A stretch of 32,000 nucleotides of DNA from Trichodesmium erythraeum IMS101 (GCF_000014265.1 NC_008312.1:2880001-2912000); one strand, 5' to 3'; counted from the stretch's first letter, positions 3,011-25,277 are shown. Made by a program: numbers and translations. Notes: a model not told the origin generated them from the letters alone.

Positions 3011-3310
3011 ATGGCAATATTAACAGCTTTAACTAAGGGTGGTACAGCTTGGACTCCTCAATATGTTGAATCTATTGACATGAATAAATGTCTAGGTTGT
3101 GGTCGTTGCTTTAAAGTTTGTAATAGAAATGTTCTAGAGCTTAGACCCATTAATGAGCATGGAGAGTTTATAGATGATGATGATGATGATGATGATGAAG
3201 TATTAAGAAAAGTAATGGCTATTGCTAATGCAGATGACTGCATTGGATGTGAAGCTTGCGCTAGTATTTGCGGTAAAAAATGCTTCACTCATACTTCTGT
3301 AGCCGCATAA
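3011..3310 (+). CDS. 2[4Fe-4S] ferredoxin of the nif-associated ferredoxin III (FdxB-like) type
   Basis: 99 aa with a Shine-Dalgarno aaggaga at 2997-3003. Two cluster motifs, [11 protein letters not shown] and [13 protein letters not shown], are separated by an acidic insert. The N-terminal [14 protein letters not shown] and the RKVM..AN..DCIGC segments match my recollection of ferredoxin III, nif-specific proteins. Confidence 0.85.
3173..3196 (+). repeat. Perfect (GAT)8 trinucleotide microsatellite encoding Asp8 inside the ferredoxin
   Basis: Eight consecutive in-frame GAT codons at 3173-3196, followed by GAA. Confidence 0.95.
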
Positions 3311-3902: not shown

Positions 3903-4400
3903 ATGCCTGCAAAAGATTTTCTCAGTTCAATTCAAAAGAAAAGATTGCAGAAAGCTTTGCGAGAGAGCGGTTGCTGTCATTTCCGAGAAAGAGTATTGAT
4001 GTTACTCCTATTAAATGACGGAAAAACTTATTCCGAGATTTCTGAATTTATCGGTTGTTCTTATAGAACAGTTGCTTATTGGTGTGTACATGGAGACCCA
4101 GATAAATTAGATAGTTTACGAGATCAGCGAGAACATGGTAATTTTCGTAAAGCGACAGAAGAATATATTCAGTTATTAATAGAAGTTACAAAAAAATCTC
4201 CTAACCAATTAGGTTATGAATGTAGTAACTGGAGTGGAGAACGTTTAGCAAATTATCTTGCTCAACAAACAGGAATTAAACTTAGTGGTACTCAAGTCAG
4301 AAGAATTCTCAAACAAAAAAATATTAGCCTTCCCAAAAGTAGAGTACAACTTTATGAGCGAAAAAATAATAGAAAAAATGTTAGTCGTCCATCTAAATAA
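3903..4400 (+). CDS. IS630-family transposase, N-terminal DNA-binding (HTH) part only. The DDE catalytic domain is absent, so this is probably a truncated relic.
   Basis: 165 aa. The segments RERVLMLLLLNDGKTYSEISEFIGCSYRTVAYW and GYECSNWSGERLANYLAQQTGIKLSGTQVRRILKQK are the paired HTH / winged-helix motifs typical of IS630 transposase N-termini. No DDE-encoding sequence follows the stop at 4398-4400. Confidence 0.6.
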   Translation: MPAKDFLSSIQKKRLQKALRESGCCHFRERVLMLLLLNDGKTYSEISEFIGCSYRTVAYWCVHGDPDKLDSLRDQREHGNFRKATEEYIQLLIEVTKKSPNQLGYECSNWSGERLANYLAQQTGIKLSGTQVRRILKQKNISLPKSRVQLYERKNNRKNVSRPSK

Positions 4401-4845: not shown

Positions 4846-6438
4846 ATGACTCATAAAATGACTGAAAACTGTCTCGGATGTGCCACCTGTCTACCCAAAA
4901 TCCAGTGCCCAACAGGTGCGATCTTTGTCGAGAATGAACAATATTCTATTAATCCTGAACTGTGTAATGGTTGTGAAGGATATTATGAAGAGCCTCAGTG
5001 TGTGGTTCACTGTTCTATTAGTAGTCCTGTTCCTCTCCAACCTAAAAAAGGTAGGTATAAAGTTGAGACAAGAACGCCTACAAGTTCTGACTTATTTCCT
5101 GATAACAAGCACAGTCCCTTTGCTTCTTCTATAGTAATGTGGGAAGCTTGCAATATTCTGGCGCAAAGACAATCACTACTTTGGACAATAGATGAAAAAG
5201 GTAAGTTTATTTATCAGCGTTCTATTAAGCAAGGTCAGGGTTCAATTAGTTTGAGCCTCCAACATTTGGAGCACTCATGCCAAACTGATAATGCAACTGT
5301 TCTACAAGAAATGGATATTAGAGCAGCCTGTATACACCTAATTTATGCGGCTCATGCCACAATTATTGACAAGCCATGGGAGCAAGAATTTGTTATCAGC
5401 GATCAGCAAATAGAAAGATACCTGGGGCTAGAAAAACGTAAAGACCTATCTAAAGCAACTAAACTGAGTTTGATTAAAAATCTTGCTCAACAGCCTTGCC
5501 GAATTACCACTACTATTGACTGGCCTCAACAAGGTAGAATAAATGCTTTTTCATTGCCAGAAAGCAAACTCTGGCATATGATTGATATTCAACATCACTT
5601 TTCTGAAGATTCCACAGGATGCAAACATCTTGTCGGTCTGACTTTTAAAGTTAGAGCGGGTATCTGGGCTAAGTATTTTCTCAACAAGGAAGCTTGCAAA
5701 GACCGTACAGCATTTTATCAATATGGGATTTTACCTAAGTCTGTATTGACTACTGTGATGAGCATTTGGCAGCAACATGAGGGAACTGCTCGAATGCTAC
5801 TATGGTTACTATTCAAAACTAAGATGGGTCGGGAGCAAAGGTTAACTGTACCTACATTAATGCGAGTTGCTTATGGCGAACAAAAGGTGAGACGAGCATC
5901 TTCTTTTAGAGATGATCGAAAACGACTCATGAAGACTTTTGAGAGTGATCTCGAAGTTCTTAGCCATTATGGGATTAAACCTGAATTTGACCCTGTAACT
6001 TACCCTCAGGAAATTCAACCAATGTGGGCAAAATTAGCATCTTTACCTGATGATGGTGATGCAGCTTTAGATTTTTGGATTGATGATGGTAGTAACCATC
6101 GTAGATTAACAGATTATGGTCCAAGGGGTAAGTGGAATATGTTAATGAACGCTCGTATCCTTTGGTTTCAACTTCCCCAAGAATGGGATCGACATTTAGC
6201 AGAATTTGAAAAACATAAGCTACGCTATACTATTAAGCGCAAAAGAACAAAGAAGCTTTCTGTTATCTGTGGCGAACAAATTATGATGGCCAGGAAAAAT
6301 CAACAGTTAAGCCAGAGACAGTTGGCAACTATGCTGGGAAAAAGCCAAAGCTGGATTAGAGATATTGAAAGTGGCCGCTTTCAACTTAAAGGTGAAGATC
6401 AAATGCTATTACAAAACCTTTTGGGTTTGGGAGGATAA
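4846..6438 (+). CDS. patB: PatB/CnfR-type transcriptional regulator with an N-terminal bis-[4Fe-4S] ferredoxin-like domain and a C-terminal XRE-type HTH
   Basis: 530 aa. The N-terminus has CLGCATCLPKIQCPTGAI and CNGCEGYYEEPQCVVHC. The C-terminus GEQIMMARKNQQLSQRQLATMLGKSQSWIRDIESG is an XRE HTH. This architecture and size match what I recall for the cyanobacterial nitrogen-fixation regulator PatB/CnfR. The call rests on architecture, not on an alignment. Confidence 0.65.
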   Translation: MTHKMTENCLGCATCLPKIQCPTGAIFVENEQYSINPELCNGCEGYYEEPQCVVHCSISSPVPLQPKKGRYKVETRTPTSSDLFPDNKHSPFASSIVMWEACNILAQRQSLLWTIDEKGKFIYQRSIKQGQGSISLSLQHLEHSCQTDNATVLQEMDIRAACIHLIYAAHATIIDKPWEQEFVISDQQIERYLGLEKRKDLSKATKLSLIKNLAQQPCRITTTIDWPQQGRINAFSLPESKLWHMIDIQHHFSEDSTGCKHLVGLTFKVRAGIWAKYFLNKEACKDRTAFYQYGILPKSVLTTVMSIWQQHEGTARMLLWLLFKTKMGREQRLTVPTLMRVAYGEQKVRRASSFRDDRKRLMKTFESDLEVLSHYGIKPEFDPVTYPQEIQPMWAKLASLPDDGDAALDFWIDDGSNHRRLTDYGPRGKWNMLMNARILWFQLPQEWDRHLAEFEKHKLRYTIKRKRTKKLSVICGEQIMMARKNQQLSQRQLATMLGKSQSWIRDIESGRFQLKGEDQMLLQNLLGLGG

Positions 6439-8236: not shown

Positions 8237-11200
8237 ATGTCATTTGTTGGCCTACATATTCATAGCGACTATAGCCTATTAGACGGAGCATCTCAATTAC
8301 CACAATTAATAGATAGAGCAGTAGAACTAGGAATGCCAGCCATTGCCCTGACAGACCACGGAGTTATGTATGGGGCTATTCAATTAATTAAACTGTGTAG
8401 AAACAAAAATATTAAACCCATAATTGGGAATGAAATGTATGTGATAAAAGGAGATATTGAGAAACAACAAAGAGGGAAAAAATTTCATCAGGTCGTATTA
8501 GCAAAAAATACTCAAGGCTATAAAAATTTAGTCAAATTAACAACTCTTTCTCATCTCCATGGTTTTCAAGGAAAAGGTATATTTGCTCGGCCTTGTATTA
8601 ATAAAGAATTGTTAGAAAAATATCACGAAGGTCTCATAGTAACTAGCGGGTGTTTGGCGGGAGAAGTACCTCAAAATATTATGCGGGGAGAATTAGAAGA
8701 AGCCAAGAAAATAGCTAAATGGTACAAAGATTTATTTGGGGAAGATTATTATCTAGAAATACAAGACCATGGCTTCCAGGAAGATAGAGTTGTAAATACT
8801 GGAATTGTCACAATTGCTAAAAAATTAAAGATAAAAATAGTAGCAACAAACGACTCTCATTTTATTTCTTGTAGAGATGTAGAAGCACACGACGCTTTGT
8901 TGTGTATTAACACTCAAAAATTAATTGCTGAAGAAAAGCGGATGCGCTATAGTGGCACCGAATATTTAAAGTCTGCTGAAGAAATGAAGCAACTGTTTAG
9001 AGACCACTTAGAAAATGAAGTTATAGAAGAGGCGATCGCTAATACATTAGAAGTAGCAAATAAAGTTAAAGCTTATGAAGGAATTTTAGGAGAACCAAGA
9101 ATTCCTGATTATCCAATTCCACCAGATCATAATGCTGATACTTACCTGGAAAAACTAGCTTGGTCAGGATTATTAGAAAGGCTAAAACTGAAACAAAAAA
9201 GTGAAATTTCCCCAATTTATAAAGAGCGGATGGAAACTGAATTAAAAGTTCTTCAGGATAAAGGTTTTTCTACATATTTTTTGGTAGTTTGGGATTATAT
9301 AAAATATGCCAGAGATAATAATATTCCTGTAGGACCTGGTAGGGGAAGTGCTGCTGGTTCATTAGTTGCCTATTCTTTGCGAATTACTAATATAGATCCG
9401 GTGCATCATGGTTTATTATTTGAAAGATTTTTAAATCCAGAACGAAAATCAATGCCAGATATTGATACGGACTTCTGTATTGAAAACCGAGATGTAATGA
9501 TTAAATATGTGACTCAAAGGTATGGAGAAGAAAGAGTCGCTCAAATTATTACTTTTAACCGGATGACATCTAAGGCAGTATTAAAAGATGTGGGTAGAGT
9601 ATTAGGTATTTCCTTTGGAGAAGCAAATAAAATGGCAAAGTTAATTCCTGTTGCACGGGGTAAACCAGCAAAGTTAAAAGTAATGATTTCTGATGAAACT
9701 CCTTCCCCAGAATTTAAAAAAGCTTATGATAACCAAGAAACACCAATTGAAGATAATAAAGCGGGAAAAATTAGTACAATTTCTGTCCGACAATGGATAG
9801 ATATGGCAATTAGAATTGAGGGTACAAATAAAACTTTTGGAGTACACGCAGCAGGAGTAGTAATTTCTAAAGAACCTCTGGATGAAATTGTGCCTTTGCA
9901 AAGAAATAATGATGGGTCAGTTATTACTCAGTATCATATGGAGGATATAGAATCTCTAGGTTTGTTGAAGATGGATTTTTTGGGATTGAAAAACTTGACT
10001 ATTATCCAGAATACTGCCGAGTTAATTAAAAAAAATCATCATCTTCCGTTGGTTCCAGATGATTTACCAGCTAATGAAAGAAAGGCAATAGAAATTTTAG
10101 CAAAAGGCAATACTAAGAAAATGCCAGAGGATGTGAAAAAGACTTATGACTTGATTAAATCTGGAGATTTAGAAGGAGTATTTCAGTTGGAATCTTCTGG
10201 GATGGTAGATGTAGTGAAAAAATTGAAGCCTACTTCTATTGAGGATATTTCTTCTATCTTAGCTTTGTATCGCCCCGGACCTTTGGATGCTGGTTTAATT
10301 CCTAAGTTTATTGACAGGAAACATGGCAGCGAAAAAATTGAATATCAACATCCAAAGTTAGAGCCAATTTTAAAAGAAACTTATGGGGTTTTGTGTTTAC
10401 CAAAGGGAACTTTAATTGATCAACCAGATGGTTCCCGGGAAGCAATTGAAAATATTAAAAGTGGAGAGGTAATTTTAACTTCGGACGGTAGAAAAGTTTG
10501 GGAGGCAAAAGTTGCTAAACAATGGCGGAGTGGTGTTAGGGAAATATTGAAGATTACTTTGTCTAGCGGGACGGTAATTTATTCGGGAAAAAACCATCGC
10601 TTTTTAACTCCAGAAGGAGATAAGTTTGCCTGGGAGTTACAACCTCAAGTGGGGAGAGTTAAGAACGCTCTTATTTATGGTTCTGCGGTTTATGAAAAAT
10701 GGCAAGTTTCTAGTAATCAGAAACAACTCCGTAAAAACGATGCTTATTTGTTAGGGTTATTAGTAGGAAAGAGTAATCTGATTTCCTCAACTCCCAATGT
10801 TTCCTTTTCCACACAAGGGGCTATTACTTGGGGGAAAAATTTGATTGATGAAACTTGGGGTGGGGAAGCTAAACATTATTTTGATACTTCTCGCCGACAG
10901 GTTTATTTAAACTTTAATACTCAATCCAAACCTACAGCCCTAACCGAGTTTTTGGATGGTATTTATGGCGCTCAAAATTGGCAGGTAGAATCTGTTGCCA
11001 AGCATTTACCAGAAGATATTTTAGATTATTCGGAAAAAGACCGAATAGATTTATTGCGTGGTCTCTGGGATAGTGGTGGTTTTGATGGCAAAAAGTTGCT
11101 TTATTATCCAGGTTCTTCTCCTCAATTATTGTCACAAGTTTGCCAGCTTTTGGGAAGTTTAAAAATTGATTATTATCTGGCAGATAATTCTGTTAGGATT

Positions 11201-14200
11201 TCCGATAGGTCTCGGTTTATTGATATATTGGAAAACTACCAAATGTCTAGCCAACAAAAAGAAGAAATTAGCGAAAGTTATTTACCTGCTTCCTCTTGGT
11301 TTTTGAAAGGTGGTTCTGAAAATAATATTCAGAAAACAGATAGTTCGAGTCGGAAAACTGGGGAGGCTTCCCAGCAGAAAGCAACTTTATTTACCCAGAA
11401 TTTATTCTCGGCTCAAACTCCGGCAGAAAATTGGGAAAAAGTCGGAGAAAATCATCTACTTTCCTCTTGGTTTTTGACAGATGCTTCTGAAAATAATATT
11501 CAGAAAACAGATAGTTCGAGTCGGAAAACTGGGGAGGCTTCTCAGCAGAAAGCAACTTTATTTACCCAGAATTTATTCTCGGCTCAAACTCCGGCAGAAA
11601 ATTGGGAAAAAGTCAGAGAAAATCATCTACTTTCCTCTTGGTTTTTGACAAATGCTTCTGAAATTTATCTTCAGAGAATAGATAGTTCGAGTCGGAAAAC
11701 TGGGGAGGCTTCTCAGCAGAAAGCAACTTTATTTACCCAGAATTTATTCTCGGTTCAAACTCCGGCAGAAAATTGGGAAAAAGTCAGAGAAAATCATCTA
11801 CTTTCCTCTTGGTTTTTGACAGATGCTTCTGAAAATAATATTCAGAAAACAGATAGTTCGAGTCGGAAAACTGGGGAGGCTTCTCAGCAGAAAGCAACTT
11901 TATTTACCCAGAATTTATTCTCGGCTCAAACTCCGGCAGAAAATTGGGAAAAAGTCAGAGAAAATCATCTACTTTCCTCTTGGTTTTTGACAAATGCTTC
12001 TGAAAATAATATTCAGAAAACAGATAGTTCGAGTCGGAAAACTGGGGAGGCTTCCCAGCAGAAAGCAACTTTATTTACCCAGAATTTATTCTCGGCTCAA
12101 ACTCCGGCAGAAAATTGGAAAAAATCCAGAAAAAATCATCTACCTTCCTCTTGGTTTTTGAAAGGTGGTTCTGAAAATAATATTCAGAAAACAGATAGTT
12201 CGAGTCGGAAAACTGGGGAGGCTTCTCAGCAGAAAGCAACTTTATTTACCCAGAATTTATTCTCGGCTCAAACTCCGGCAGAAAATTGGGAAAAAGTCAG
12301 AGAAAATCATCTACTTTCCTCTTGGTTTTTGAAAGATGCTTCTGAAAATAATATTCAGAAAACAGATAGTTCGAGTCGGAAAACTGGGGAGGCTTCTCAG
12401 CAGAAAGCAACTTTATTTACCCAGAATTTATTCTCGGCTCAAACTCCGGCAGAAAATTGGGAAAAAGTCAGAGAAAATCATCTACTTTCCTCTTGGTTTT
12501 TGACAGATGCTTCTGAAAATAATATTCAGAAAACAGATAGTTCGAGTCGGAAAACTGGGGAGGCTTCTCAGCAGAAAGCAACTTTATTTACCCAGAATTT
12601 ATTCTCGGCTCAAACTCCGGCAGAAAATTGGGAAAAAGTCAGAGAAAATCATCTACTTTCCTCTTGGTTTTTGACAGATGCTTCTGAAAATAATATTCAG
12701 AAAACAGATAGTTCGAGTCGGAAAACTGGGGAGGCTTCCCAGCAGAAAGCAACTTTATTTACCCAGAATTTATTCTCGGCTCAAACTCCGGCAGAAAATT
12801 GGGAAAAAGTCAGAGAAAATCATCTACTTTCCTCTTGGTTTTTGACAAATGCTTCTGAAAATAATATTCAGAAAACAGATAGTTCGAGTCGGAAAACTGG
12901 GGAGGCTTCCCAGCAGAAAGCAACTTTATTTACCCAGAATTTATTCTCGGCTCAAACTCCGGCAGAAAATTGGAAAAAAGCCAGAGAAAATCATCTACTT
13001 TCCTCTTGGTTTTTGACAAATGCTTCTGAAATTTATCTTCAGAGAACAGATAGTTCGAGTCGGAAAACTGGGGAGGCTTCCCAGCAGAAAGCAACTTTAT
13101 TTACCCAGAATTTATTCTCGGTTCAAACTCCGGCAGAAAATTGGAAAAAAGCCAGAGAAAATCATCTACTTTCCTCTTGGTTTTTGACAAATGCTTCTGA
13201 AATTTATCTTCAGAGAACAGATAGTTCGAGTCGGAAAACTGGGGGGGCTTCCCAGCAGAAAGCAACTTTATTTAACCAGAATTTATTCTCGGTTCAAACT
13301 CCGGCAGAAAATTGGGAAAAAGTCAGAGAAAATTATCTACTTTCCTCTTGGTTTTTGACAAATGCTTCTGAAATTTATCTTCAGAGAACAGATAGTTCGA
13401 GTCGGAAAACTGGGGAGGCTTCCCAGCAGAAAGCAACTTTATTTACCCAGAATTTATTCTCGGTTCAAACTCCGGCAGAAAATTGGAAAAAAGCCAGAGA
13501 AAATCATCTACTTTCCTCTTGGTTTTTGACAAATGCTTCTGAAATTTATCTTCAGAGAACAGATAGTTCGAGTCGGAAAACTGGGGGGGCTTCCCAGCAG
13601 AAAGCAACTTTATTTAACCAGAATTTATTCTCGGTTCAAACTCCGGCAGAAAATTGGAAAAAAGCCAGAGAAAATCATCTACTTTCCTCTTGGTTTTTGA
13701 CAAATGCTTCTGAAATTTATCTTCAGAGAACAGATAGTTCGAGTCGGAAAACTGTGGAGGCTTCCCAGCAGAAAGCAACTTTATTTACCCAGAATTTATT
13801 CTCGGCTCAAACTCCGGCAGAAAATTGGGAAAAAGTCAGAGAAAATTATCTACTTTCCTCTTGGTTTTTGACAAATGCTTCTGAAATTTATCTTCAGAGA
13901 ATAGATAGTTCGAGTCGGAAAACTGGGGAGGCTTGCCAGCAGAAAGCAACTTTATTTAACCAGAATTTATTCTCGGCTCAAACTCCGGCAGAAAATTGGA
14001 AAAAAGTCAGAGAAAATCATCTACTTTCCTCTTGGTTTTTGACAGATGCTTCTGAAAATAATATTCAGAAAACAGATAGTTCGAGTCGGAAAACTGTGGA
14101 GGCTTCCCAGCAGAAAGCAACTTTATTTACCCAGAATTTATTCTCGGCTCAAACTCCGGCAGAAAATTGGAAAAAATCCAGAAAAAATCATCTACCTTCC

Positions 14201-16291
14201 TCTTGGTTTTTGACAGATGCTTCTGAAAATAATATTCAGAAAACAGATAGTTCGAGTCGGAAAACTGGGGAGGCTTCCCAGCAGAAAGCAACTTTATTTA
14301 CCCAGAATTTATTCTCGGTTCAAACTCCAGAGTTGGAAAATTGGGAATGTGAAAAAACTTATTTACAGGATGTCAGAGTTGTTCATGTTGTCTCTGTGGA
14401 AGAAGTAGGAGAAGCAGAATGTTTTGATTTAGAAATGGAAGACCAAAGCTCACCTTATTTTCTAGCTGAAGGAGTAGTAGTTCATAATTGTTATCAAGAG
14501 CAAATTATGAAAATGGCTCAAGATTTAGCAGGATATTCTTTGGGAGAAGCAGATTTATTACGTCGTTGTTTAAGTGGTTCGACAAAAGTAATAGATGCAG
14601 CAACAGGTAACTTGTTTAGTCTGAAAGAAATAGCTGCTCAACCTGAGTATTGGTTGAGTCGAAAAGTCTTTTCTTTAGATCTCAAAAGCCAACAAGTTGT
14701 TCAACAACCAATAACAGAAATTCATCCTAATGGTGTGCGAGATGTTTGGCAAATTACTACTCGTACAAACCGGAAAGTTTGCGCTACGGATGACCACCTT
14801 TTTTATACAGTTTTAGGATGGAAACCTTTAAAAGATTTTTCTGTAGGCGATCGCTTAGGTTTACCAAATAAAATTCCGATTAATTATAGGAGTCAAATAT
14901 CTGATTCTAAAGTTAAATTTACTGCTTATTTAATTGGTGAAGGATATCTATATACTAATAGTTTTTCTTGTAGTTATTTCTGTAATAGTGATGGGGAATT
15001 AATTGCTGATTTTTATGGTTGTGCAGAGGAGTTATTTGGCTCTTCTGCTCCTATTGAAAAACAGCTACATCTAGGAAATAAATCAGTTATTTATGTTCGT
15101 ATAGGTTTGATTTCAGGGTTGAAGAATTGGGTTGATAGTTATCTTCAATGTGCTAATTCACGGGTTCAAGAAATTCCTAATTGGATCTTTTCTCTTTCTC
15201 AGAGTCAGTTACAACTTTTCTTGGGAATTTTATGGTCAACAAGTGGTATTTTTGACGAAACAATTGGGTATACATATTATTCTTCAAATTCAGAGGTTTT
15301 AGTTAGACAAGTTCAACATTTATTTCTACGTTTAGGTATTGTTTCTCTATTCAATGTTAATAAGGTTAAAGGTCAAGGTGAACTTGATGTTTCTTATGTG
15401 GTTGAAGTTAGAGGGCGTGAGGATATGCTCAAGTTTTATAAGTTAATTAAGCCATATTTGAGTAGTTACAAACAGGGGCTTTGTGAAAGTTGTTATTTAG
15501 TGATTAAATATCAGCAAAGTTATCAATTTAAATATTTTCTAACTCCAGATTTTTTTGACCTAATTGTCAAAGCTAAAAAAGCTAGTTCTATGACTAGGGC
15601 TTTGGGTGTATGTGGTGGTGAAATTTCATCGGTTTGGAATTTTCAAAATACTTCAAACCGGAGTTTATCCTTTGATAAATTTAATAATTTTTCGACAGTT
15701 TTGGCAGATGAGGAATTAACGGCAATAGCTAATTCTGATGTTTTTTGGGATGAGATTATCTCTATAGAATATATTGGCAAAGAAGAAGTTTTTGATTTAA
15801 CAATTCCCGAAACTCATAATTTTATTGCTAATGATTTTATTGTTCACAACTGCATGGGTAAAAAGAAGGTCTCCGAAATGGAAAAACACCGGGAAAAGTT
15901 TATTGATGGTGCAGCTCAAAGGGGAGTTTCGTCTGTAGTTGCAAAAGATTTGTTTGAACAGATGATTAAGTTTGCTGAATATTGTTTAACTTATGAGACT
16001 GAAATTATGACTGTAGAATATGGTCCTCTTCCTATTGGTAAAATTGTAGAATATCGGATTGAATGTACGGTTTATACGGTTGATAAAAATGGATATATTT
16101 ATACTCAGCCAATTGCTCAATGGCATAATCGAGGTATGCAGGAAGTTTATGAATATAGCCTTGAAGATGGAACAGTTATTCGGGCAACTCCAGAACATAA
16201 GTTTATGACAGAAGATGGTCAAATGTTGCCTATTGATGAAATTTTTGAGCGTAATTTGGATTTAAAATGTTTAGGGACTCTTGAACTATGA
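8237..16291 (+). CDS. dnaE: DNA polymerase III alpha subunit, N-terminal split half (DnaE-N). It is interrupted by two complete inteins and ends in the N-fragment of the split DnaE intein.
   Basis: The N-terminus has a PHP domain ([19 protein letters not shown]...[11 protein letters not shown]). Core polymerase motifs are present ([55 protein letters not shown]). The conserved YGV(L)-[19 protein letters not shown] and KFAEY junctions are each broken by a Cys-initiated insertion. Confidence 0.95.
10394..14488 (+). mobile_element. Intein 1 (1,365 aa): Hint splicing domain, degenerate LAGLIDADG endonuclease domain, and a large internal tandem-repeat array
   Basis: It starts at Cys720 ([13 protein letters not shown]...), directly after the extein ...KETYGVL. 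Block B-like GKNHRFLT is present. It ends ...[11 protein letters not shown], followed by the +1 Cys of CYQEQIM. The LAGLIDADG-like motifs are [11 protein letters not shown] and [13 protein letters not shown]. Confidence 0.9.
11291..14360 (+). repeat. About 18 in-frame tandem copies of a 171-bp (57-aa) unit inside intein 1
   Basis: The unit is SSWFL(T/K)(D/N/G)(A/G)SE(NNIQK/IYLQR)(T/I)[18 protein letters not shown](T/N)QNLFS(A/V)QTPAENW(E/K)K(V/A/S)R(E/K)N(H/Y)L(L/P). Copy starts fall exactly at 11291+171k for k=0..17 (checked at 11462, 13001 and 14198). No stop or frameshift occurs in any copy. Confidence 0.97.
14567..15850 (+). mobile_element. Intein 2 (428 aa) with a LAGLIDADG-type endonuclease domain
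   Basis: It starts [15 protein letters not shown]..., directly after the extein GEADLLRR. Block B-like [10 protein letters not shown] is present. It ends ...[12 protein letters not shown], followed by the +1 Cys of CMGKKK. The LAGLIDADG-like motifs are [11 protein letters not shown] and [13 protein letters not shown]. Confidence 0.9.
15983..16288 (+). mobile_element. N-terminal fragment (102 aa) of the naturally split DnaE intein; the gene ends here
   Basis: [102 protein letters not shown] follows the extein ...KFAEY. It is near-identical in pattern to the Npu/Ssp DnaE IntN sequences ([70 protein letters not shown]). The stop is at 16289-16291. Confidence 0.93.
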
Positions 16292-17003: not shown

Positions 17004-18995
17004 TTATAAGATAGACAGGTTGTAAGGAGTTCCACTACCTTGATCGAATACGCCAACCACATAGGTATCGGGAAACAAGAAGGTGTTAATCTCTTCAGGA
17101 GCATTGCCGGAGTTAGTAGAACTATCAAGGGATACTTTGTCGCTATCGTATAGTTCTAGGTTAGCGTTGCTCCTGAGACCGTCAAGTTTGATGCTGACGA
17201 AACTAGGCTCCGGAACAACAAAGTTGTAATAGTCGTTTTGATCAACTTTGCCTCCATTCTTGAAGCCAATATCACTGCTTTGGGTGAGAGGATCAACAAC
17301 TGTACCAAGAGGGATCCCTGGTGCCTTGTCATCTATATTTCCAGTCAGGGAGTCTCTCTTCTCAGAACCAGCGCTACGCTTAGAGCTTGGCAAGTCCCCA
17401 ACTCTTTTCAGCATCACTTTGGCTGTATCTGTACCGCCTTTGCCGTCGCTGATAGTATACTCAAAACTCCCCTTGCTGAACTTCTTATGCTTTCCACTAG
17501 GGGTAAAAGTTATTTCACCGCTTTTAGTTAACTCTACTTCGCCCTTGGTTGCATTACTGACTTTAATAATAGTCAACTTGTCGCCATCTTTATCTTGATC
17601 ATTTTTCAGTAACTTTTTTGCTTGGATAGCGTGAAAGAGCTTGGGTCTGACAAAAAACACCTTGTCGTCTTTAGCGATGGGGTCAGAATTATCTCTGACT
17701 TGAACTGTAACAGTCGCGCTATCACGGCCTTTATTACCGTCGTCGATGGTATATTCAAAACTGGCCTTGCCCGTAAAGTCTTTATCGGGGGTAAAAGTTA
17801 CCTTACCATTTTTACCCAGGATCACTTTGCCATTTGAAGCTTTACCTACCTTGCTAATACTTAACTTATCCCCGTCTTTATCCGTATCGTTTGCCAATAG
17901 CTCTTTTGGTTTAATAACCAATTTGCTTCCTGCATTAGTGGCGAGGTTGTCATTGCTTGCGATGGGCTTGGTGTTAACAATAGGAGTAACATTAACTTTG
18001 GTTTCCCCATAACCCAATACTTCCAGGGAAAGACGGTCTTTTTGGCTAGCATCGAGATCTGTAATACCCAGTTTAACTTCAAAAGTCCGACTTTGCCCAG
18101 GGCGGACATTTTCGTAAGTCGTAGGCTTAATACTTTTAATGTAACCAAACTCATCGCTTTGGGGTACTATCGTTAAGTCACTAAAGACTTCCTCCAAGCC
18201 CTCTGTTACTACCTTAACTAAGTTAGAACTGTCCCGCGATAACCTTTCTACCGTACCAAACCCCAATTTATCTACGAGTTTTTTGTAGTTTCTGACTTGG
18301 TTGCCGGTGACTGCAAAAATGGGAACAATGCCGGCTTCTTGTAAAGCATCTCTTACTTGATCGATACTGGGATAGTCTTCCCCAGTACCGGCTGGCTTAC
18401 CATCAAGAACTGTATCCCCATTATTGGGAGTTTTGATACCTGCTTTTTTGCCGTCTCCTGCTTTGTGGTAGTTAGCATCTGTAGAAAGAACGACAACGCG
18501 CCGAGATTTCTTACGGAAGCCTATCTCTTTTTCTCTGAGAGCTAACTGCATCAATGCCTCAAGCTGTGCCTCAGGACCGTCATTACCGTTACCAATTTTC
18601 AAGTCATCCATCGCTTTCTGAAAATCAGTGCGAGATTTAGTGATCGCTGACTCCATTCTATACACAAAATCTTTAGGGCCGCCAAAGGGATCTTTGGGTT
18701 TATCTATATATGATGCTAGACCGAATTGACTGTTTGGTTGGATGTCTCGAACTGAGGAAACTAGCTTGGGAACTAAATCCTGTAATACTGGCAGGTCATC
18801 CCCATAAGAACCAGAAAGATCGCTAAGAAAAACTAGGTCTAGAGGTAATTTTGTGGAACTTTTTTTAGTAACTTTGGCAGTGATATCAAAGGTCACATTG
18901 TCTCCAGGTACAAGAGTTACATCTACTACATCTGGATTTAAGCCTCCTTTGCGATCAACTATATTTGTGATACTGCTTTTAGTTTTCTTCGCCAT
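17004..18995 (-). CDS. vWA (MIDAS) domain protein with two cadherin-like/VCBS-type repeats and one C-terminal PPC domain
   Basis: 663 aa. It has the MIDAS motif DLVFLSDLSGSYGDD plus VVVLSTDANYH. Two ~95-aa repeats carry P(I)A.(N/D)D...(L)L.ND.DKDGDKL(S/T)I.KV....G.V......G.(V/I)TFTP....F.G..SFEYTI.DG.G..D.A.V. The C-terminal PPC domain reads DYYNFVV...NANLELYD...DTYVVGVF...YNLSI. Confidence 0.85.
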   Translation of the reverse strand: MAKKTKSSITNIVDRKGGLNPDVVDVTLVPGDNVTFDITAKVTKKSSTKLPLDLVFLSDLSGSYGDDLPVLQDLVPKLVSSVRDIQPNSQFGLASYIDKPKDPFGGPKDFVYRMESAITKSRTDFQKAMDDLKIGNGNDGPEAQLEALMQLALREKEIGFRKKSRRVVVLSTDANYHKAGDGKKAGIKTPNNGDTVLDGKPAGTGEDYPSIDQVRDALQEAGIVPIFAVTGNQVRNYKKLVDKLGFGTVERLSRDSSNLVKVVTEGLEEVFSDLTIVPQSDEFGYIKSIKPTTYENVRPGQSRTFEVKLGITDLDASQKDRLSLEVLGYGETKVNVTPIVNTKPIASNDNLATNAGSKLVIKPKELLANDTDKDGDKLSISKVGKASNGKVILGKNGKVTFTPDKDFTGKASFEYTIDDGNKGRDSATVTVQVRDNSDPIAKDDKVFFVRPKLFHAIQAKKLLKNDQDKDGDKLTIIKVSNATKGEVELTKSGEITFTPSGKHKKFSKGSFEYTISDGKGGTDTAKVMLKRVGDLPSSKRSAGSEKRDSLTGNIDDKAPGIPLGTVVDPLTQSSDIGFKNGGKVDQNDYYNFVVPEPSFVSIKLDGLRSNANLELYDSDKVSLDSSTNSGNAPEEINTFLFPDTYVVGVFDQGSGTPYNLSIL

Positions 18996-19101: not shown

Positions 19102-22100
19102 TCAGAGAGAAATGCTCAGGTCGTAAGGAGTTTGATTACCTAGACCGAATACACCCACCACATAGGTAGTATCGGCACTCAAGAAGCTATTAATCTCCTC
19201 AGAAGTATTGCCGGAGTTATTAGAACTGCCAAGTTCTACTTCGCCAGTCTCATCGTATAGTTTCAGGTCAGCGTTATCGCTCAGGTCGTCAAGTTTGATA
19301 TCTACGAAACCAGCCTGGGTAATATCAAAGCTGTAATAGTCCTTGGTGTCAACTACGCCTCCCTCCGTGAAGCCGAGGTCACCGCCTTGGGTAAGAGGAT
19401 CAGCACCAACTGTAACCGTACCGAGAGCTATCCCTGGTGGCTCATTGTCTATGCTTTCACCAATTTCACTCGCACTCATATTCAGAGTGTAGTCAGTTTT
19501 AGCCGCACCCCTGGGAAACACTCGCACACAATAGTCGCCCGCATCCAAAGTAAGGTTGATTTTTTCGTCGTCACTACCACCATTAGCAGAAGTATTTAGC
19601 ACAGTGCTACCGTCGCCATCAATTAGCTGTAGGTTGGCGTTACCAGTAAGGCCTGTAAGGTTAATATCGACACTACTCTTAGCGCTCAAAGTAAACTTGC
19701 GGTAGTCGTTGACATCACGATAACTGTTTTCTTCACGACCGATGGAGTCCTCCTCTTCGTATGAGGTTAACACGCCGATGTCGGTGACGTTTTCTGGAAG
19801 TTTGCCTCCGTCCTCATCCACGCTACTGCCTGGCTCAGGAACCTTAATATTTAGGGTATAGTTACCACGAGCGTTACCTTTGGGTTCAACCCCTACATAG
19901 TAAGTACCTGGTTCAAGCTCTTCTTCAATTTTTTCGTTTTTCTTCTTCTTATTGCGGGAATCTTTGATCAAAGTATCAGAACTATCAAGCAATTCCAGAT
20001 CGATATCAGCGCTCAGTTTATTTAGGGAGATAGTCAGATTCTTGTCTTCGCTTAGTTCAAACTTGTAGTAGTCTACTTCGTCCCGACTGCTACCACTGCC
20101 GAAACCGACATTATCTATCTTACTGTAATCTTCAGTGAGGTTACCGATATCATTGTACAAAGAAGTCTCTAGCACAGGACCACCATCTGGATCGACGCTC
20201 GAACCACTTGCAAAAATGTCCAAATTATACTTAGTTTTAGCTTGGTTCTGGGGCTCTACATCCACATAATAATCGCCTGGATCCAGAGTGTCGCTAATAT
20301 TTTCGTTCCTTCTACCGCCTTTCCGAGACTCAAGCAATAAAGTGCCATCATCATCGTACAAGGCAATGTTGGCATTTCTTTTCAGCCCTGTGAGGTCAAT
20401 TTCTACATTCCTCTCGTCGCTTATGCTGAATAAGTGCCGATCAATAACGTTACGAATACCACCAGAGGTAAAGCCGATTTCCTCGCCCCTGATACTGTAA
20501 CCATCCTCCAAAGACAAAAGGTCACCAACTGTAAACTCTTGTCTCGGTTCTGGGATCGGTTCAGCATTCACCGAAAAACGATAGTTGCTGCGACTGTTTC
20601 CCTTTGGCAATATCTGGACATGATAAGTTCCTGCCTCCAATATCTCAGCAATGTTTTCTGATTTACGACCCTTGTTCCGAGAATTATTGAGAAAGGTTCC
20701 GTCGTCATCGTACAAGATCATATCTATGTTTTGACGCAGACGAGTCAGGTCGATGTCAACCAAGCTCTCTTCATCAATTGTAAAGCTGACCCAATCTTCT
20801 GTGTCACGACCGGAACGACCTTCAGTACGGCCCATTTCGCCGTTGAAGACCCTTGTCTCCCCAATAGGGATATTCCCGAAGTCTAAAGCTTCTTCAACAC
20901 TAGCATAGTCATCAACATAAGGAGCAGTCGCAGTTATACCCAAGCGATAGTTACTCTTGGCGCCACCATTTGGGAAAACTTTTATGTTATAGGTTCCTGG
21001 TTCCAGCCCTTCAAGTTCTATCTTTTCAGCTTTGCGGCCTGTATTTTTACCATCATCAACTAGCTCGCCACCCTCATCATAGATTTCCAGGTTAAGGTCT
21101 TGCCTTAGTCTATCTAGAGTCAGGTTGACATCGCTCTCTATCGGCACAGAAAAGTTGTACCAGTCTACCCTGTCTTTGTTAGCACCAAGTTTACCGGTTT
21201 TGCTGACGGGAGTAAGCTCCGTAACTGCCCCCAAGCTAATACCTGGTTCCTGGTCATCTTGTTCATTGGAAAGCACATCAGCGCTCAGACCCAGGCGATA
21301 GTCTGTCCTGGCAGCACCTTGGGGAGTTACGCGCACAAAATAATCACCGGGTTCTAATTCCTCGTTAATCTTTTCTCTTTTACGACCGCTATTGTTAGAC
21401 TGGTAGAGAATAGTGCTGCCATCCCCATCTAAAACCTCAACATTAGCATTTCCCTTTAGCTGGTCTAGGGTAAGGAAAAAGTCACTCTTTTCATTGATAC
21501 CAAACTTATAGTAATCTTCTTGGTCCCGGTTTTTACCCCGACCGAAGCCTATTCTGTCAATTTCGGTTACTTCTTCGAGTCCGATATTACCTAGTTCTTT
21601 AGCGGTATCAGTTGTGTCCTTTTCATCTGTCAGGGCATCAGCACTTACCCCTAAGCGGTATTTTGTGCGATCATCTCCTTCAGGATAAACACGGATGAAA
21701 TAATCACCTGATTCTAAATTTTCGGTAATGTTTTCCCGCTTCCGGTTCTCTTCAGTTGACTGGAAAAGTACTGTGCTACCATCCTCATCTAGAATTTCAA
21801 CGTTAGCATTGCGCTTGAGTTGGTCTAGAGTGATGTCAACCTCACTATCCTTGCTGAGAGTAAACTTATAGAAATCTTGCAAGTCACGGACACCACCTTC
21901 ATTAAAACCGATTTCGTCGGTATTGCGGTAGTTCTTCCGGCTGTTAAGATCGCCAAGATTAATGGCACCGTCCGTTTTTGCTGTGGGGTCTTCAAGACGC
22001 TCAATATCTCTGGGTGCTAGTCTAATTTTCGCGAACAAGCTAGCTATGTCTACTTCTTGTTCCATCACCCGAAAGCGGTTTACTAGGGTGTCACCACCAT

Positions 22101-22572
22101 CTTGGCTAAAGCCTGTTAGCTCTAAGGTGTATGTTTGTCCATCAAATTTGAAGGTTTCCGTGGGTAAGACTTTGGGAAAATAGACGAAATCAGACCAGTC
22201 ATCTATCTCGTCAGAGGTATCCTCCGTAGTGTCTAAGTCCAGATTGAAAGTAAAAGTTATGGGAGAATCTAATAATTCAAAAGGATCTAATAATTCAATC
22301 TTCAGCGGTACTGACTCTACCGCTGTATCCGAAAAAATTGAACCGTTAAAGAAGGTTAACTTTCCGACTTCAAACTGCTGGTCAGTTTTAATGCCCCCGC
22401 TAATGTCTTCCGCATTAAAGAGTAAGCTGTTTGGTTTCAGGTCTTCCTCTACCGACTCTCCCCAACGAAACGTATTCGGAGGATCTGTAGGATAAATTTT
22501 AGGATTCGGGTTTGGCCCTGGCTCGGCCTCTCCCCAGGTGCCACTAAATTCAACTTGAAAAGTCTCCGGCAT
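19102..22572 (-). CDS. Large acidic repeat protein: an N-terminal ~190-aa domain of unknown function followed by 8 PPC domains
   Basis: 1,156 aa with an ATG start. Eight units fit the PPC pattern D(Y/F/W)Y.F.(L/I/V)....V...L..L..NA(D/N)(L/V).(L/I).D.(D/S)G.......N.....E.I...L..G.Y...V.P.....Y.L. Anchor motifs are DFYKFTL, DYYKFGI, DWYNFSV, DWVSFTI, DRHLFSI, DYYKFEL, DYRKFTL and DYYSFDI. The N-terminus MPETFQVEFSGTWGE has no signal peptide. Confidence 0.85.
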   Translation of the reverse strand: MPETFQVEFSGTWGEAEPGPNPNPKIYPTDPPNTFRWGESVEEDLKPNSLLFNAEDISGGIKTDQQFEVGKLTFFNGSIFSDTAVESVPLKIELLDPFELLDSPITFTFNLDLDTTEDTSDEIDDWSDFVYFPKVLPTETFKFDGQTYTLELTGFSQDGGDTLVNRFRVMEQEVDIASLFAKIRLAPRDIERLEDPTAKTDGAINLGDLNSRKNYRNTDEIGFNEGGVRDLQDFYKFTLSKDSEVDITLDQLKRNANVEILDEDGSTVLFQSTEENRKRENITENLESGDYFIRVYPEGDDRTKYRLGVSADALTDEKDTTDTAKELGNIGLEEVTEIDRIGFGRGKNRDQEDYYKFGINEKSDFFLTLDQLKGNANVEVLDGDGSTILYQSNNSGRKREKINEELEPGDYFVRVTPQGAARTDYRLGLSADVLSNEQDDQEPGISLGAVTELTPVSKTGKLGANKDRVDWYNFSVPIESDVNLTLDRLRQDLNLEIYDEGGELVDDGKNTGRKAEKIELEGLEPGTYNIKVFPNGGAKSNYRLGITATAPYVDDYASVEEALDFGNIPIGETRVFNGEMGRTEGRSGRDTEDWVSFTIDEESLVDIDLTRLRQNIDMILYDDDGTFLNNSRNKGRKSENIAEILEAGTYHVQILPKGNSRSNYRFSVNAEPIPEPRQEFTVGDLLSLEDGYSIRGEEIGFTSGGIRNVIDRHLFSISDERNVEIDLTGLKRNANIALYDDDGTLLLESRKGGRRNENISDTLDPGDYYVDVEPQNQAKTKYNLDIFASGSSVDPDGGPVLETSLYNDIGNLTEDYSKIDNVGFGSGSSRDEVDYYKFELSEDKNLTISLNKLSADIDLELLDSSDTLIKDSRNKKKKNEKIEEELEPGTYYVGVEPKGNARGNYTLNIKVPEPGSSVDEDGGKLPENVTDIGVLTSYEEEDSIGREENSYRDVNDYRKFTLSAKSSVDINLTGLTGNANLQLIDGDGSTVLNTSANGGSDDEKINLTLDAGDYCVRVFPRGAAKTDYTLNMSASEIGESIDNEPPGIALGTVTVGADPLTQGGDLGFTEGGVVDTKDYYSFDITQAGFVDIKLDDLSDNADLKLYDETGEVELGSSNNSGNTSEEINSFLSADTTYVVGVFGLGNQTPYDLSISL

Positions 22573-22685: not shown

Positions 22686-25277
22686 TTAGAAAAAATTAAT
22701 TGTATAGTCACTTTGGGCATCACCGACAGCCTCAACTTGCAGGTAATAATCCCCCGCTTCTAAAGTGGCATTGATCCTTTCGGTATTCGTACCGGGATTA
22801 GAAGACTTAAAGATTTCGGTAAAGATTTCGGTTTCGCCGTCACTACCCAAGAGAGTTAAGTCAGCATTTTGGGTCAGGCCGGACAAAATTATCCGGATGT
22901 CATCGTTTGCGTCGAGAGTAAATTTATAGTAGTCATTGACGTCATCTACTCCGTCTTCCATAAAACCTATTTTACCACTTTGAGTAAGCAGATCACTTCC
23001 CAAATCTGTAGCATCCTCCGGGGTGCCATCTGGGTCTCCCGTAATGGGATCTACTTCCGTTTCATCACCATCATCTCCCATGTCATCATCATCCCCGTCA
23101 TCCATGTCATCAGGAGGATCAGGAAGCGGGTCGGCGTTCATTTTCAGGAAATAGCTAGTTTTAGCATTGCCCACCGGGAAGACTTGCACTGTGTAGTCCC
23201 CAGCATCCAAAGTGTCACTCAAAATTTCTGGAGCATTCTCAGGGTTAAAGCCACTAAGGACCATATCACCTTCGCTATCCAACACCATCACATTAGCATC
23301 CCGCGTCATTTCGTCTAGGGTGAGCATGAAGTTGCTGTTGTTATCTAAGGTTAAGTTGTAGAAGTCGTTGAGGTTCCGAGAACCATTCTGGAAATCCCCA
23401 ATTCTTCCTTTCTTTTTGTACTCGTTATTGTTCAGATCAAGTAAAGAACCGACCTCAAAAGTTTCATCTCCCTCGGCGACTACTTCAGTGTCTATACCCA
23501 GACGGTAGGTAGTCTCAGCATTGCCCATTGGCATCACTCGCAAAGTGTAATCCCCTGGCTCTAAGACTTGATCAATTATTTCTGGATTATTTCTCTTTTC
23601 CTTGGAGCTGTCCACCAGCATGGAGCCCTTATAAAGCTCTAGGTCAACATTTCGCTTGATTTGGTCTAGAGTGGCATTAAACTCAGTTAACTCGTTGATA
23701 GTAAAAGTATATTCGTCCTGTGAGTTGCGTACCCCGCCGCCTTCTCCACCTATTTTGTCGTTATTGCTATATTCTGTGGGAGACTCCAGAGTTCCCAAAG
23801 GAAAGGTATCTGTTGGTGAGATGGGTTCATCCGCGCTCAGACTCAGGCGATAGTTGGTATTACTACTACCCCTAGCGACTACCTTTACATAATAGGTACC
23901 GGCATCTAGGTTTTCGTTAATAGTTTCCCGTTGCTTACCTTTATTTTTTGATTTGTAGAGCCGTGTAGTGCCATCGGCATCATAAATTTCGGCATCTGCC
24001 GCATTTACCCGCAGTTCATCTAAGGTTAAATCGACATTTTTCTCAGCGCTGAGGGTGAACTTAAACCAGTCCGCTTGGTCTCGGAATCGATCGTCTGTCA
24101 ATAGCCCCACATTATTACCCGTCTCATTAGTGGGTGTAGGTACCAACTCCCCCAAGTCCTTCGCCATTTCTGGAGCGGGGAAATCATCTACATTGATCCT
24201 GGCGTCCAATTCCAGTCGGTAGTCGGTCTTAGCCGCACCTCTAGGGCGTACCTCTAGGGCATAGTGTCCTTCAGGTAAAAATTCGCTGATGGTATCTGGT
24301 CTTCTGCCTTTGCGGGTAGACTTATTCAACCGGGAACCTAGTTCTTCTGGTTCATCAGGATCATATTCGTATAAATAGATATCAGCGTTCCGCTGTAGTT
24401 GATCTAGTTCTGCATAAAAGGAAGCTTCTTGACTCAACTCAAAAGTGTAATAATCCTTTGTGTTGCGCTGCCGACCGCGACCAAAGCCGATATCTTCAAT
24501 AGCAAAGTGTGGTTCTTCTGAAGCTAGAAGGTCCCCAACATCAGTGCCCGGAAGCTTTTCCGGTGGCAATATTTCGTCGGCGCTCAACCCCAAGCGGTAG
24601 GAAGTTCTAGCCCTACCCTGAGGGAAGACCCGCACCAGATAATCCCCTTTTTCCAAGATAGCGTTAATCGTTTCTTCCTGGCGTCCCTTATTTCGAGATT
24701 GCAGCAACAAGGTCTTCCCTTTATCGTCCCAAATTTGGACGTTGGCATTCTTTTTTAGCTGGTCTAGAGTGAGGCTGACATCACTATCCTGATCTAAGGT
24801 AAAGTTGAAGTAATCGTTTTTGTCCCTTTGGCCTCCCTTGGCAAAACCAATTTCATCGGTAAACGTAACCTCTTCTTCACTATCCAGGACTCCTAGGGAG
24901 ACACCAGGAAGCTCATCGTCAGTTATTGGATCAGCATTAAGACTCAACCTATAATCTGTTTGTGCCATGCCTTTTGGTAAGACGCGGACAAAATATTCTC
25001 CTGCATCTAATTCCGCATCAATAACTTCTCGTTGTTTACCAGGTTTTGTCGACTTGAATAATACTGAGCCATCACTATCTAATATTTGGACATTAGCATT
25101 CTTATCTAACTTGTCTAGGGTTAGATTAAAGTCGCTTTCCTCGTCGAGCTTAAATTTGTAGAAGTCGTTGCGCTCCCGTTTACCATCTACTCTAAAACCG
25201 ATCTGATCGTTCGTTACAGTCGGTTCTAGTTCGATGACTCCCAGGTCTAACGCATCTGCTCTGGTGTCGTTAGCCAT
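22686..25277 (-). CDS. Acidic repeat protein made of 7 PPC domains plus a poly-acidic linker
   Basis: 863 aa with an ATG start (MANDTRADALDLG) and no signal peptide. PPC anchor motifs are DFYKFKL, DYFNFTL, DYYTFEL, DWFKFTL, DEYTFTI, DFYNLTL and DYYKFTL. The linker reads DPLPDPPDDMDDGDDDDMGDDGDETEVDPITGDPDGTPED. Confidence 0.85.
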   Translation of the reverse strand: MANDTRADALDLGVIELEPTVTNDQIGFRVDGKRERNDFYKFKLDEESDFNLTLDKLDKNANVQILDSDGSVLFKSTKPGKQREVIDAELDAGEYFVRVLPKGMAQTDYRLSLNADPITDDELPGVSLGVLDSEEEVTFTDEIGFAKGGQRDKNDYFNFTLDQDSDVSLTLDQLKKNANVQIWDDKGKTLLLQSRNKGRQEETINAILEKGDYLVRVFPQGRARTSYRLGLSADEILPPEKLPGTDVGDLLASEEPHFAIEDIGFGRGRQRNTKDYYTFELSQEASFYAELDQLQRNADIYLYEYDPDEPEELGSRLNKSTRKGRRPDTISEFLPEGHYALEVRPRGAAKTDYRLELDARINVDDFPAPEMAKDLGELVPTPTNETGNNVGLLTDDRFRDQADWFKFTLSAEKNVDLTLDELRVNAADAEIYDADGTTRLYKSKNKGKQRETINENLDAGTYYVKVVARGSSNTNYRLSLSADEPISPTDTFPLGTLESPTEYSNNDKIGGEGGGVRNSQDEYTFTINELTEFNATLDQIKRNVDLELYKGSMLVDSSKEKRNNPEIIDQVLEPGDYTLRVMPMGNAETTYRLGIDTEVVAEGDETFEVGSLLDLNNNEYKKKGRIGDFQNGSRNLNDFYNLTLDNNSNFMLTLDEMTRDANVMVLDSEGDMVLSGFNPENAPEILSDTLDAGDYTVQVFPVGNAKTSYFLKMNADPLPDPPDDMDDGDDDDMGDDGDETEVDPITGDPDGTPEDATDLGSDLLTQSGKIGFMEDGVDDVNDYYKFTLDANDDIRIILSGLTQNADLTLLGSDGETEIFTEIFKSSNPGTNTERINATLEAGDYYLQVEAVGDAQSDYTINFF

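Follow-up and report, generated by a model that had tools for sequence, protein, structure and literature searches.

The dnaE-n gene of Trichodesmium erythraeum IMS101 raises the question of how a long array of near-identical repeats comes to lie within an essential replication enzyme, and why it is still there. The gene encodes the N-terminal part of the DNA polymerase III alpha subunit and was analysed within a stretch of 32,000 nucleotides (nt) of the genome (NC_008312.1, positions 2,880,001 to 2,912,000), referred to here as the window. Its coding sequence is interrupted by inteins and the first of these, intein 1 (Ter DnaE-1), carries about 18 tandem copies of a unit of 57 amino acids (aa). 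The array is likely to be a near-neutral protein-coding minisatellite in a permissive intein site, held in frame because DnaE is essential. Such a case, in which a replication enzyme that is essential apparently tolerates some 1,000 residues within one of its inteins, is rare in nature.

Origin of the repeat unit

Proteins, and genomes sampled at one per species, were searched with an artificial 'single-copy' intein 1 in which the last unit alone connects the N-terminal and C-terminal parts. This identified 36 loci with 31 intact inteins, all at the same DnaE site (..YGVL/C...HN/). They are 373 to 401 aa long, all but one being 398 to 401 aa, and come from Pseudanabaena, Snowella, Laspinema, Phormidium, Geminocystis, Xenococcaceae and a Microcoleaceae metagenome-assembled genome (MAG). 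In each of them the unit is represented once only and collinearly, by a segment of fixed length with 0-3% gaps that separates the LAGLIDADG domain from block F. The native segment follows the pattern NYLP..S..F..L...I..TD..TRKT.KRSLQ.A.LFKP..S.YK.KL..W..FY...Y..TYLQDAR. Its mean top-residue frequency in the homologues is 0.66, compared to 0.78 for the regions of HINT-N and the endonuclease and 0.83 for HINT-C.

The two ends of the unit can be traced to the two sides of this segment. For the unit end EKVRENHL the homologous sequence is the left flank EEISE(S/N)YL, with 22 of 36 nt matching in the window after a 3 nt shift (random expectation 10.0 +/- 3.0) and 26 of 36 in MAG08_tar_biofilm, hereafter MAG08 (10.6 +/- 2.9). 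The ENW of the unit belongs to the native right flank ENWEEFD. On these alignments the unit is therefore the native segment of the intein, with its end joined to its start. In the window the right flank is 6 aa shorter than the ENWEEFDxEIxEKTYL of the relatives. A previous reading of the window from its sequence alone, the original prediction, had taken the flanks for diverged unit ends and had proposed growth from native intein sequence rather than from foreign DNA, and both proposals are supported by the matches at the flanks and the collinear single-copy homologues.

Insertion of a foreign mobile or repeat element into the intein might otherwise have been suspected, as repeats and selfish elements abound in Trichodesmium genomes, only approximately 60% of the genome being coding (PMC4143802). 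Such an origin is hardly conceivable in light of the collinearity of the unit with the native segment of all 31 intact homologues, the homology of the flanks to the unit ends, and a GC content of the array (38.7%) that is the same as that of its surroundings. A HMMER profile of the unit had seven matches among 1.84 billion representative proteins, and those inspected were DnaE or bare repeat fragments. A word-indexed protein search with the unit returned a single 134 aa fragment, the Okeania and MO_207 proteins being found only through the exhaustive HMMER search. In a scan of JGI metagenome contigs with the unit alignment there were 201 pattern matches, none of them true relatives. Nor does the array match any Rfam family at the gathering threshold, be it an intron or another RNA family.

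The net charge of the segment is +6 in the outgroup and about -1 in the array units. This lost basic charge would fit the loss of a presumed DNA-contacting role.

In MAG08 this DnaE site is also occupied, on another contig, by a further intein allele. This second allele (L033, JAXHSW010000011.1) is 373 aa long, single-copy and 45% identical to the array allele (L037, JAXHSW010000195.1), which suggests that the bin mixes two cyanobacteria.

Anatomy of the array

Tandem Repeats Finder reports one array at 11290-14328 of the window, with a period of 171, 17.8 copies, 96% matches, 0% indels and a score of 5462. Unit starts, recognized by SSWFL, fall at 11291 + 171 x i for i = 0 to 17, giving 18 starts. 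In a six-frame test the DnaE frame has no stops across the array and the other five frames have 20 to 66 each. The units are thus head-to-tail, have a length that is a multiple of three and share a single open frame, as in a coding minisatellite. The approximately 1,020 repeat residues are placed between the endonuclease domain and block F of intein 1. The period, the count of about 18 uninterrupted in-frame copies, and the position between the LAGLIDADG-type domain and blocks F and G had all been read correctly from the sequence, as Pfam matches and alignments agree with the repeat analysis.

The sequence classes named in the original prediction are also all present in the copy table. Following SSWFL, KGG is found in copies 1 and 6, KDA in copy 7, TDA in copies 2, 4, 8, 9, 17 and 18, and TNA in copies 3, 5 and 10 to 16, while IYLQR marks copies 3 and 11 to 16. 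The unit endings EKVRE, KKARE and KKSRK occur together with two additional variants, EKVGE in copy 1 and KKVRE in copy 16. One detail requires correction. KGG is indeed shared by copies 1 and 6, but KKSRKNHLP, which had been placed in copies 6 and 18, closes copies 5 and 17 when units are counted in the SSWFL phase, and so stands directly before copies 6 and 18. The proposed arrangement of the classes in blocks is seen in the similarity of near neighbours, copies at lags of 1 and 2 differing by a mean of 5.55 nt compared to 7.35 nt overall (permutation p = 0.003). Some copies are identical, these being 2, 4 and 8, and also 11 and 13.

A promoter-like match is present on the minus strand, once per TNA-class unit, between 11622 and 13874 of the window. 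This sequence, TTGTCA-18-GATGAT/GATAAT, matches the consensus weakly, at 9 or 10 of 12 positions.

Distribution and turnover

Arrays of the same kind are present in relatives of T. erythraeum. Compared to the 17.8 copies of 171 nt (57 aa) and 96% similarity in the window, Trichodesmium sp. MAG_R02 has at least 12 copies of 174 nt (58 aa) with 86-87% similarity, across scaffold gaps, and MAG08 has at least 15 copies of 174 nt with 83-88% similarity, individual copies being 50 to 76 aa. The complete DnaE-N of Okeania sp. KiyG1 (1,871 aa) contains approximately 6.5 copies of 58 aa, and the partial protein of Microcoleaceae MO_207.B10 contains at least four copies of 58 aa. Okeania sp. SIO3B3 is represented by a fragment only, in which copies are not countable. 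In all six, the junction ENW-xK(V/I)RExHL and its phase are identical. As these are common to every genome with an array, the simplest reading of the sequences would be a single origin before Trichodesmium and Okeania split.

The units themselves cluster by genome. The nearest unit was in the same genome for 36 of 36 units, and nucleotide identity is 83-96% within genomes compared to 65-73% between them. A one-codon loss, giving 57 rather than 58 aa, is common to all of the T. erythraeum units. The units have evolved in concert, with complete turnover.

Turnover through unequal crossover or gene conversion, which had been proposed as an ongoing process, fits three observations: the lag pattern, the identical copies that are not adjacent, and the class order at the left boundary, which differs among strains. 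The flanks of the window recur in other T. erythraeum-type strains and MAGs, where the class order after the left boundary is different, although the contigs of these always end 1 to 3 units into the array and chimeric short-read joins are possible there. The comparison among strains that had been suggested covers class order at this boundary.

Near-identical repeats of 171 nt are hard to assemble, and every short-read Trichodesmium assembly breaks within 1 to 3 units. However, independent assemblies of at least six genomes have the array with the same flanks, and the window is from a finished contig of 7.75 Mb, the assembly from which the copy number of 18 is taken. An assembly artefact, or an array that is removed from the RNA and remains untranslated, is very improbable. 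Untranslated sequence would not be expected to produce diverged arrays that are open in exactly one frame and have whole-codon indels, as is found here. Removal at the RNA level was dropped as a candidate on the Rfam result.

Selection on the reading frame and on the units

Arrays with 12-17% divergence, copies ranging from 49 to 76 aa and whole-codon indels are open in exactly one frame. To judge from these arrays, the reading frame is clearly under selection.

The ratio of nonsynonymous to synonymous divergence (dN/dS) was estimated by the Nei-Gojobori method, the window being compared to MAG08, MAG_R02 and Okeania sp. KiyG1, with consensus sequences used to compare the units among all four of these array genomes. 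The ratio is 0.09-0.16 for the N-extein, 0.09-0.31 for the HINT-N lobe and 0.02-0.21 for the N half of the split intein with which the gene closes. For the LAGLIDADG domain it is 0.54-0.72 and for the repeat unit consensus 0.35-0.72. The unit dN of 0.25-0.39 is the highest in the gene, that of the extein being 0.04. Within arrays, the corresponding ratio of polymorphisms (pN/pS) is 0.62 in MAG08 and 0.64 in MAG_R02. A comparison of this type had been suggested with the original prediction, and its outcome points to weak amino acid constraint on the units.

Of the 22 variant sites in the window array, 21 are nonsynonymous where 21% synonymous changes would be expected (binomial P = 0.038), although sites such as 32, 34, 37 and 44 are linked in blocks. 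Positive selection was considered on the basis of these replacements and was dropped, as linked sites are not independent events; the figure is read only as a lack of purifying selection.

Decay of the endonuclease

The two LAGLIDADG motifs of intein 1 lie within a domain of about 200 aa. Active endonucleases of this kind have GDG and DxDG at the catalytic positions; in the window both catalytic acidic residues have been replaced, leaving GKS and DSGG. GDG and DSDG are retained by nearly all of the single-copy homologues, except that the second MAG08 allele, an outlier, has SSG and DSEG. The motifs are GNS and DSGG in MAG_R02 and GNA and DSHG in the array allele of MAG08. The endonuclease of intein 1 is probably inactive.

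In two genomes the domain has been lost altogether and the array kept. Okeania sp. KiyG1 has a deletion of the entire endonuclease domain (..KNEAY/FSDRQKLESW..), its intein 1 (L038, 5565-6700) being reduced to HINT-N, repeats and HINT-C, with a total of 536 aa. In MO_207.B10 the domain has been deleted at a different breakpoint (..SSNKKK/TDSSSRK..). Each deletion has one breakpoint inside a repeat unit. Every genome with an array therefore has an endonuclease that is either degenerate or deleted.

Intein 2 has the LAGLIDADG motifs LIGEG and WSTSG in the window, compared to LIGDG and WSTDG in Okeania sp. KiyG1. Its second motif looks to be degenerate as well in T. erythraeum.

Predicted structure of the units

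Prediction of fold or disorder had been suggested for the 57 aa unit. No confident fold was obtained: an AlphaFold2 model of three units, based on a shallow alignment of the window copies and two fragments, has low-confidence helices, a mean predicted local distance difference test (pLDDT) score of 33 and a predicted template modelling (pTM) score of 0.16. No Pfam family is found in the repeat units below E = 0.04, so that neither a predicted fold nor a known repeat family marks them as a structured repeat domain. On a charge-hydropathy plot the units are on the disordered side in three of four genomes, and the HINT and endonuclease parts are on the folded side.

A single-copy homologue was also modelled, with an alignment of eight rows. 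Its endonuclease has pLDDT values of 73 to 92 and matches I-DmoI as well as PI-SceI, PI-PfuI and the TliVMA intein, the model having Foldseek E values of 1e-7 to 1e-5 against the last three. The region equivalent to the unit and the HINT lobes are below 50, and the model is therefore uninformative as to the order of the native segment.

Tolerated minisatellite or selected module

The observations above can be assembled into a course of events. In endonuclease-intact relatives the segment is a fixed-length, basic and moderately conserved part of the intein. An ancestor of Trichodesmium and Okeania would have tandemly duplicated this native stretch of the DnaE-1 intein, approximately 58 codons long, which separates the LAGLIDADG domain from HINT block F, joining ...ENW to EE(I/V)(S/R)EN(Y/H)L... 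Slippage during replication, or else unequal recombination, may then have expanded the array, with continuing turnover homogenizing the units of each genome. Selection would act almost solely upon the reading frame, as seen in a period that is a multiple of three, the lack of stops and the whole-codon indels. The frame would be selected because the C-terminal splicing blocks and the remainder of the essential DnaE-N lie downstream. The array itself would be tolerated because the site naturally accepts large intein insertions, because protein splicing removes the array from DnaE, and because the partner endonuclease is already dead. From these observations we infer both the slippage or recombination mechanism and the lack of any function for the array itself.

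Experimental work on this intein is available. The natural Ter DnaE-1 intein has been reported as splicing in earlier work, and a mini-intein derived from it by deletion of the central region splices at approximately 10% in E. coli (PMC3620165). That splicing occurs without the central region is counted here in favour of an array that is dispensable for it.

Several points weigh against a near-neutral array. It has been kept in every Trichodesmium-Okeania genome seen, over an extein dS of 0.27-0.45, and has outlasted two independent deletions of the adjoining endonuclease domain. A purely neutral, recombination-prone insert of 3 kb might have been lost from some lineages. About 20 of the 58 consensus positions, including TLF, FS, NW and NHL, are identical in the four genomes and dN/dS between genomes is less than 1, hence residual constraint on the peptide or the DNA is possible. 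The low model confidence is weak evidence for disorder, since the HINT domain of the single-copy homologue, which is certainly folded, also scored poorly. Finally, the splicing of the mini-intein at only approximately 10% could mean that the deleted region aids splicing.

The main rival reading is an array selected as a functional module, whether as a flexible tether tuning the rate or conditions of splicing and the supply of DnaE, or through a role of the excised intein after splicing. The retention of the array in all six genomes or fragments of the clade, two of them with the endonuclease deleted, the dN/dS of the units with their invariant positions, and the low splicing of the engineered mini-intein can all be cited for such a module. 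Yet the constraint on the units is far weaker than that on the HINT lobes or extein, and almost all of the variants in the window are nonsynonymous. Copies range from approximately 6.5 to at least 18 and units from 49 to 76 aa. The lack of a confident fold, the loss of basic character and the restriction of the seven profile matches, as far as inspected, to DnaE also speak against a module. As for the mini-intein, the foreign exteins and artificial linker with which it was tested make its low efficiency a poor guide to the array. A selected module is unlikely on this balance. More doubtful again is its fuller form, in which the array has been selected throughout the lineage and outlasts the endonuclease. 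It would then be a disordered tether whose tunable length determines the pace or conditions of splicing and so gates the polymerase supply, or would give the excised intein a second role after splicing. The post-splicing role, put forward as speculation with the original prediction, is without support, given the lack of a confident fold, the weak constraint and the lack of homologues outside the intein among the profile matches inspected.

The array bears upon the cargo capacity of the HINT domain, upon the decay of inteins after the death of their endonuclease, and upon coding minisatellites that splicing largely hides from selection. The genomes described here also form a natural series for the study of splicing, from a single copy with an intact endonuclease, to an array with a dead endonuclease, to an array with the endonuclease deleted.

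The host gene and its neighbours

The coordinates of dnaE-n and its parts are given in Table 1. The open reading frame (ORF) contains two contiguous inteins followed by the N half of a split intein at its end, and has Pfam matches to PHP, DNA_pol3_alpha, DNA_pol3_finger and Intein_splicing. It is identical to Tery_1889 of T. erythraeum IMS101 (ABG51145.1 / WP_011611518.1), which is on the 7.75-Mb contig.

Table 1. Parts of dnaE-n in the window, with positions counted from its first nucleotide
Feature	Position	Strand	Description	Evidence
dnaE-n ORF	8237-16291	+	DNA polymerase III alpha N-terminal part, 2,684 aa	ORF list, Pfam, exact match to Tery_1889
Intein 1 (Ter DnaE-1)	10394-14488	+	aa 720-2084, 1,365 aa, CLPKGT to VVHN, then Cys+1	Alignment to homologous inteins at identical extein site
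HINT-N lobe of intein 1	10394-10681	+	Blocks A and B, including GKNHRFLT	Pfam Intein_splicing E = 0.0015, below curated cut-off; PDB sequence matches
Degenerate LAGLIDADG homing-endonuclease domain	10682-11260	+		Weak Pfam LAGLIDADG_3 match, E = 0.025; motifs compared to homologues
LAGLIDADG motif 1	10742-10777	+	About 100 aa from motif 2
LAGLIDADG motif 2	11048-11089	+	About 100 aa from motif 1
Left flank	11261-11290	+	Native sequence ancestral to unit end EKVRENHLL; in effect the diverged array start
Tandem array	11291-14329	+	Unit 171 nt / 57 aa; 17 full copies (11291-14197) and first 132 nt of copy 18	Tandem Repeats Finder, copy table, frame test
Right flank	14330-14365	+	Diverged native end of last unit	Alignments
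HINT-C lobe of intein 1	14366-14488	+	Blocks F and G, ends VVHN	Pfam Intein_splicing positions 116-155 of 155, E = 3.8e-4
Intein 2 (Ter DnaE-2)	14567-15850	+	aa 2111-2538, 428 aa, with LAGLIDADG domain; outside array	Pfam Intein_splicing, LAGLIDADG_3
Split intein N half (Ter DnaE-3 N)	15983-16288	+	aa 2583-2684, 102 aa; outside array	ORF end

Intein 1 has the features of a class 1 intein, with an N-terminal Cys, a C-terminal His-Asn and Cys as the first residue of the C-extein. HINT splicing blocks are matched on both sides of the insert, each of the two Intein_splicing matches alone being below the curated cut-off of Pfam. Removal of the intein leaves a contiguous conserved host protein, and the same flanks (..ETYGVL upstream) are found at the 31 intact loci elsewhere. 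Among sequences in the PDB, the HINT-N lobe matches the Mtu RecA intein and DnaE inteins, and the HINT-C lobe is conserved across all of the homologues. The split-intein part of one homologue (P0001) is 76% identical to the structures of the Npu DnaE split intein.

In KiyG1 (L038, 9492-10895) and in MAG08 (L037, 11501-13078), the other half of the polymerase gene, dnaE-c (HHH_6 and OB-fold), follows dnaE-n in the same orientation after approximately 0.9-1.4 kb. In the window no plus-strand ORF of at least 150 aa follows dnaE-n after position 16291, thus the two dnaE halves would be separated in T. erythraeum.

Upstream of dnaE-n on the plus strand, two helix-turn-helix proteins are encoded at 3903-4400 and 4846-6438. 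The HTH_32/HTH_23 domains in one of the pair resemble a DNA-binding domain of the transposase type, and a C-terminal HTH_3 is present in the other, a protein of 530 aa. A (GAT)x8.7 microsatellite is at 3173-3198. Downstream, the minus strand encodes a 663 aa protein at 17004-18995 with an Integrin_beta VWA-domain match (E = 5e-46) and bacterial cadherin-like/Big_9 and PPC (pre-peptidase C-terminal) domains. Beyond it are PPC-repeat proteins from ORFs at 19102-22572, 22686-25277 and 25931-31849, also on the minus strand. The product of the last of these has 1,972 aa with 13 PPC domains and CARDB, and its ORF contains a second coding tandem repeat, at 28417-29422, with a period of 357 nt, 2.8 copies and 90% match.

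Comparison with known systems

The array of T. erythraeum is already known. The intein 1 of the window is the same object as Ter DnaE-1, and its 1,365 aa sequence, repeats included, is a stand-alone database record (P0021). The original prediction had cautioned that the array was probably published. The record bears this out, and the title and citation of the paper in question, by Liu & Yang (J Biol Chem 278:26315, 2003, PMID 12766150) on the T. erythraeum dnaE inteins, were confirmed through reference lists; the paper reportedly describes the repeats. The mini-intein study (PMC3620165) came later from the same laboratory. No report of the comparative results (origin from a single copy, occurrence in both Trichodesmium and Okeania, units clustered by genome, endonuclease loss and weak constraint) was found in the searchable literature, and nothing else relevant was found there on repeats within inteins, one cited review being silent on Trichodesmium. 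The comparison across the clade is a useful addition rather than a new kind of system.

Intein 1 resembles the bifunctional LAGLIDADG inteins, such as PI-SceI, PI-PfuI and the TliVMA intein, in having its HINT domain split by an endonuclease between blocks B and F. It differs from these in the replacement of both catalytic acids and in the repeat array, which is present in none of the solved inteins that were matched.

In-frame coding minisatellites with concerted evolution are known, for example, in the FLO adhesins of yeast and in the repeats of bacterial surface proteins. The window array is like the FLO-type minisatellites in its head-to-tail units of a multiple of three, the likeness of units within a genome, the similarity of neighbours and an arrangement that varies by strain. 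However, FLO-type repeats stay in the mature functional protein, where copy number alters the phenotype, whereas those of the window are spliced out of an essential host protein, hence copy number should be nearly invisible to the function of DnaE.

Mini-inteins arise through loss of the endonuclease domain, which is the usual path of decay in the homing cycle. KiyG1 and MO_207.B10 have likewise deleted the LAGLIDADG domain of this intein. Unlike mini-inteins they have kept the array, and the result is not a compact intein but one of HINT-N, repeats and HINT-C.

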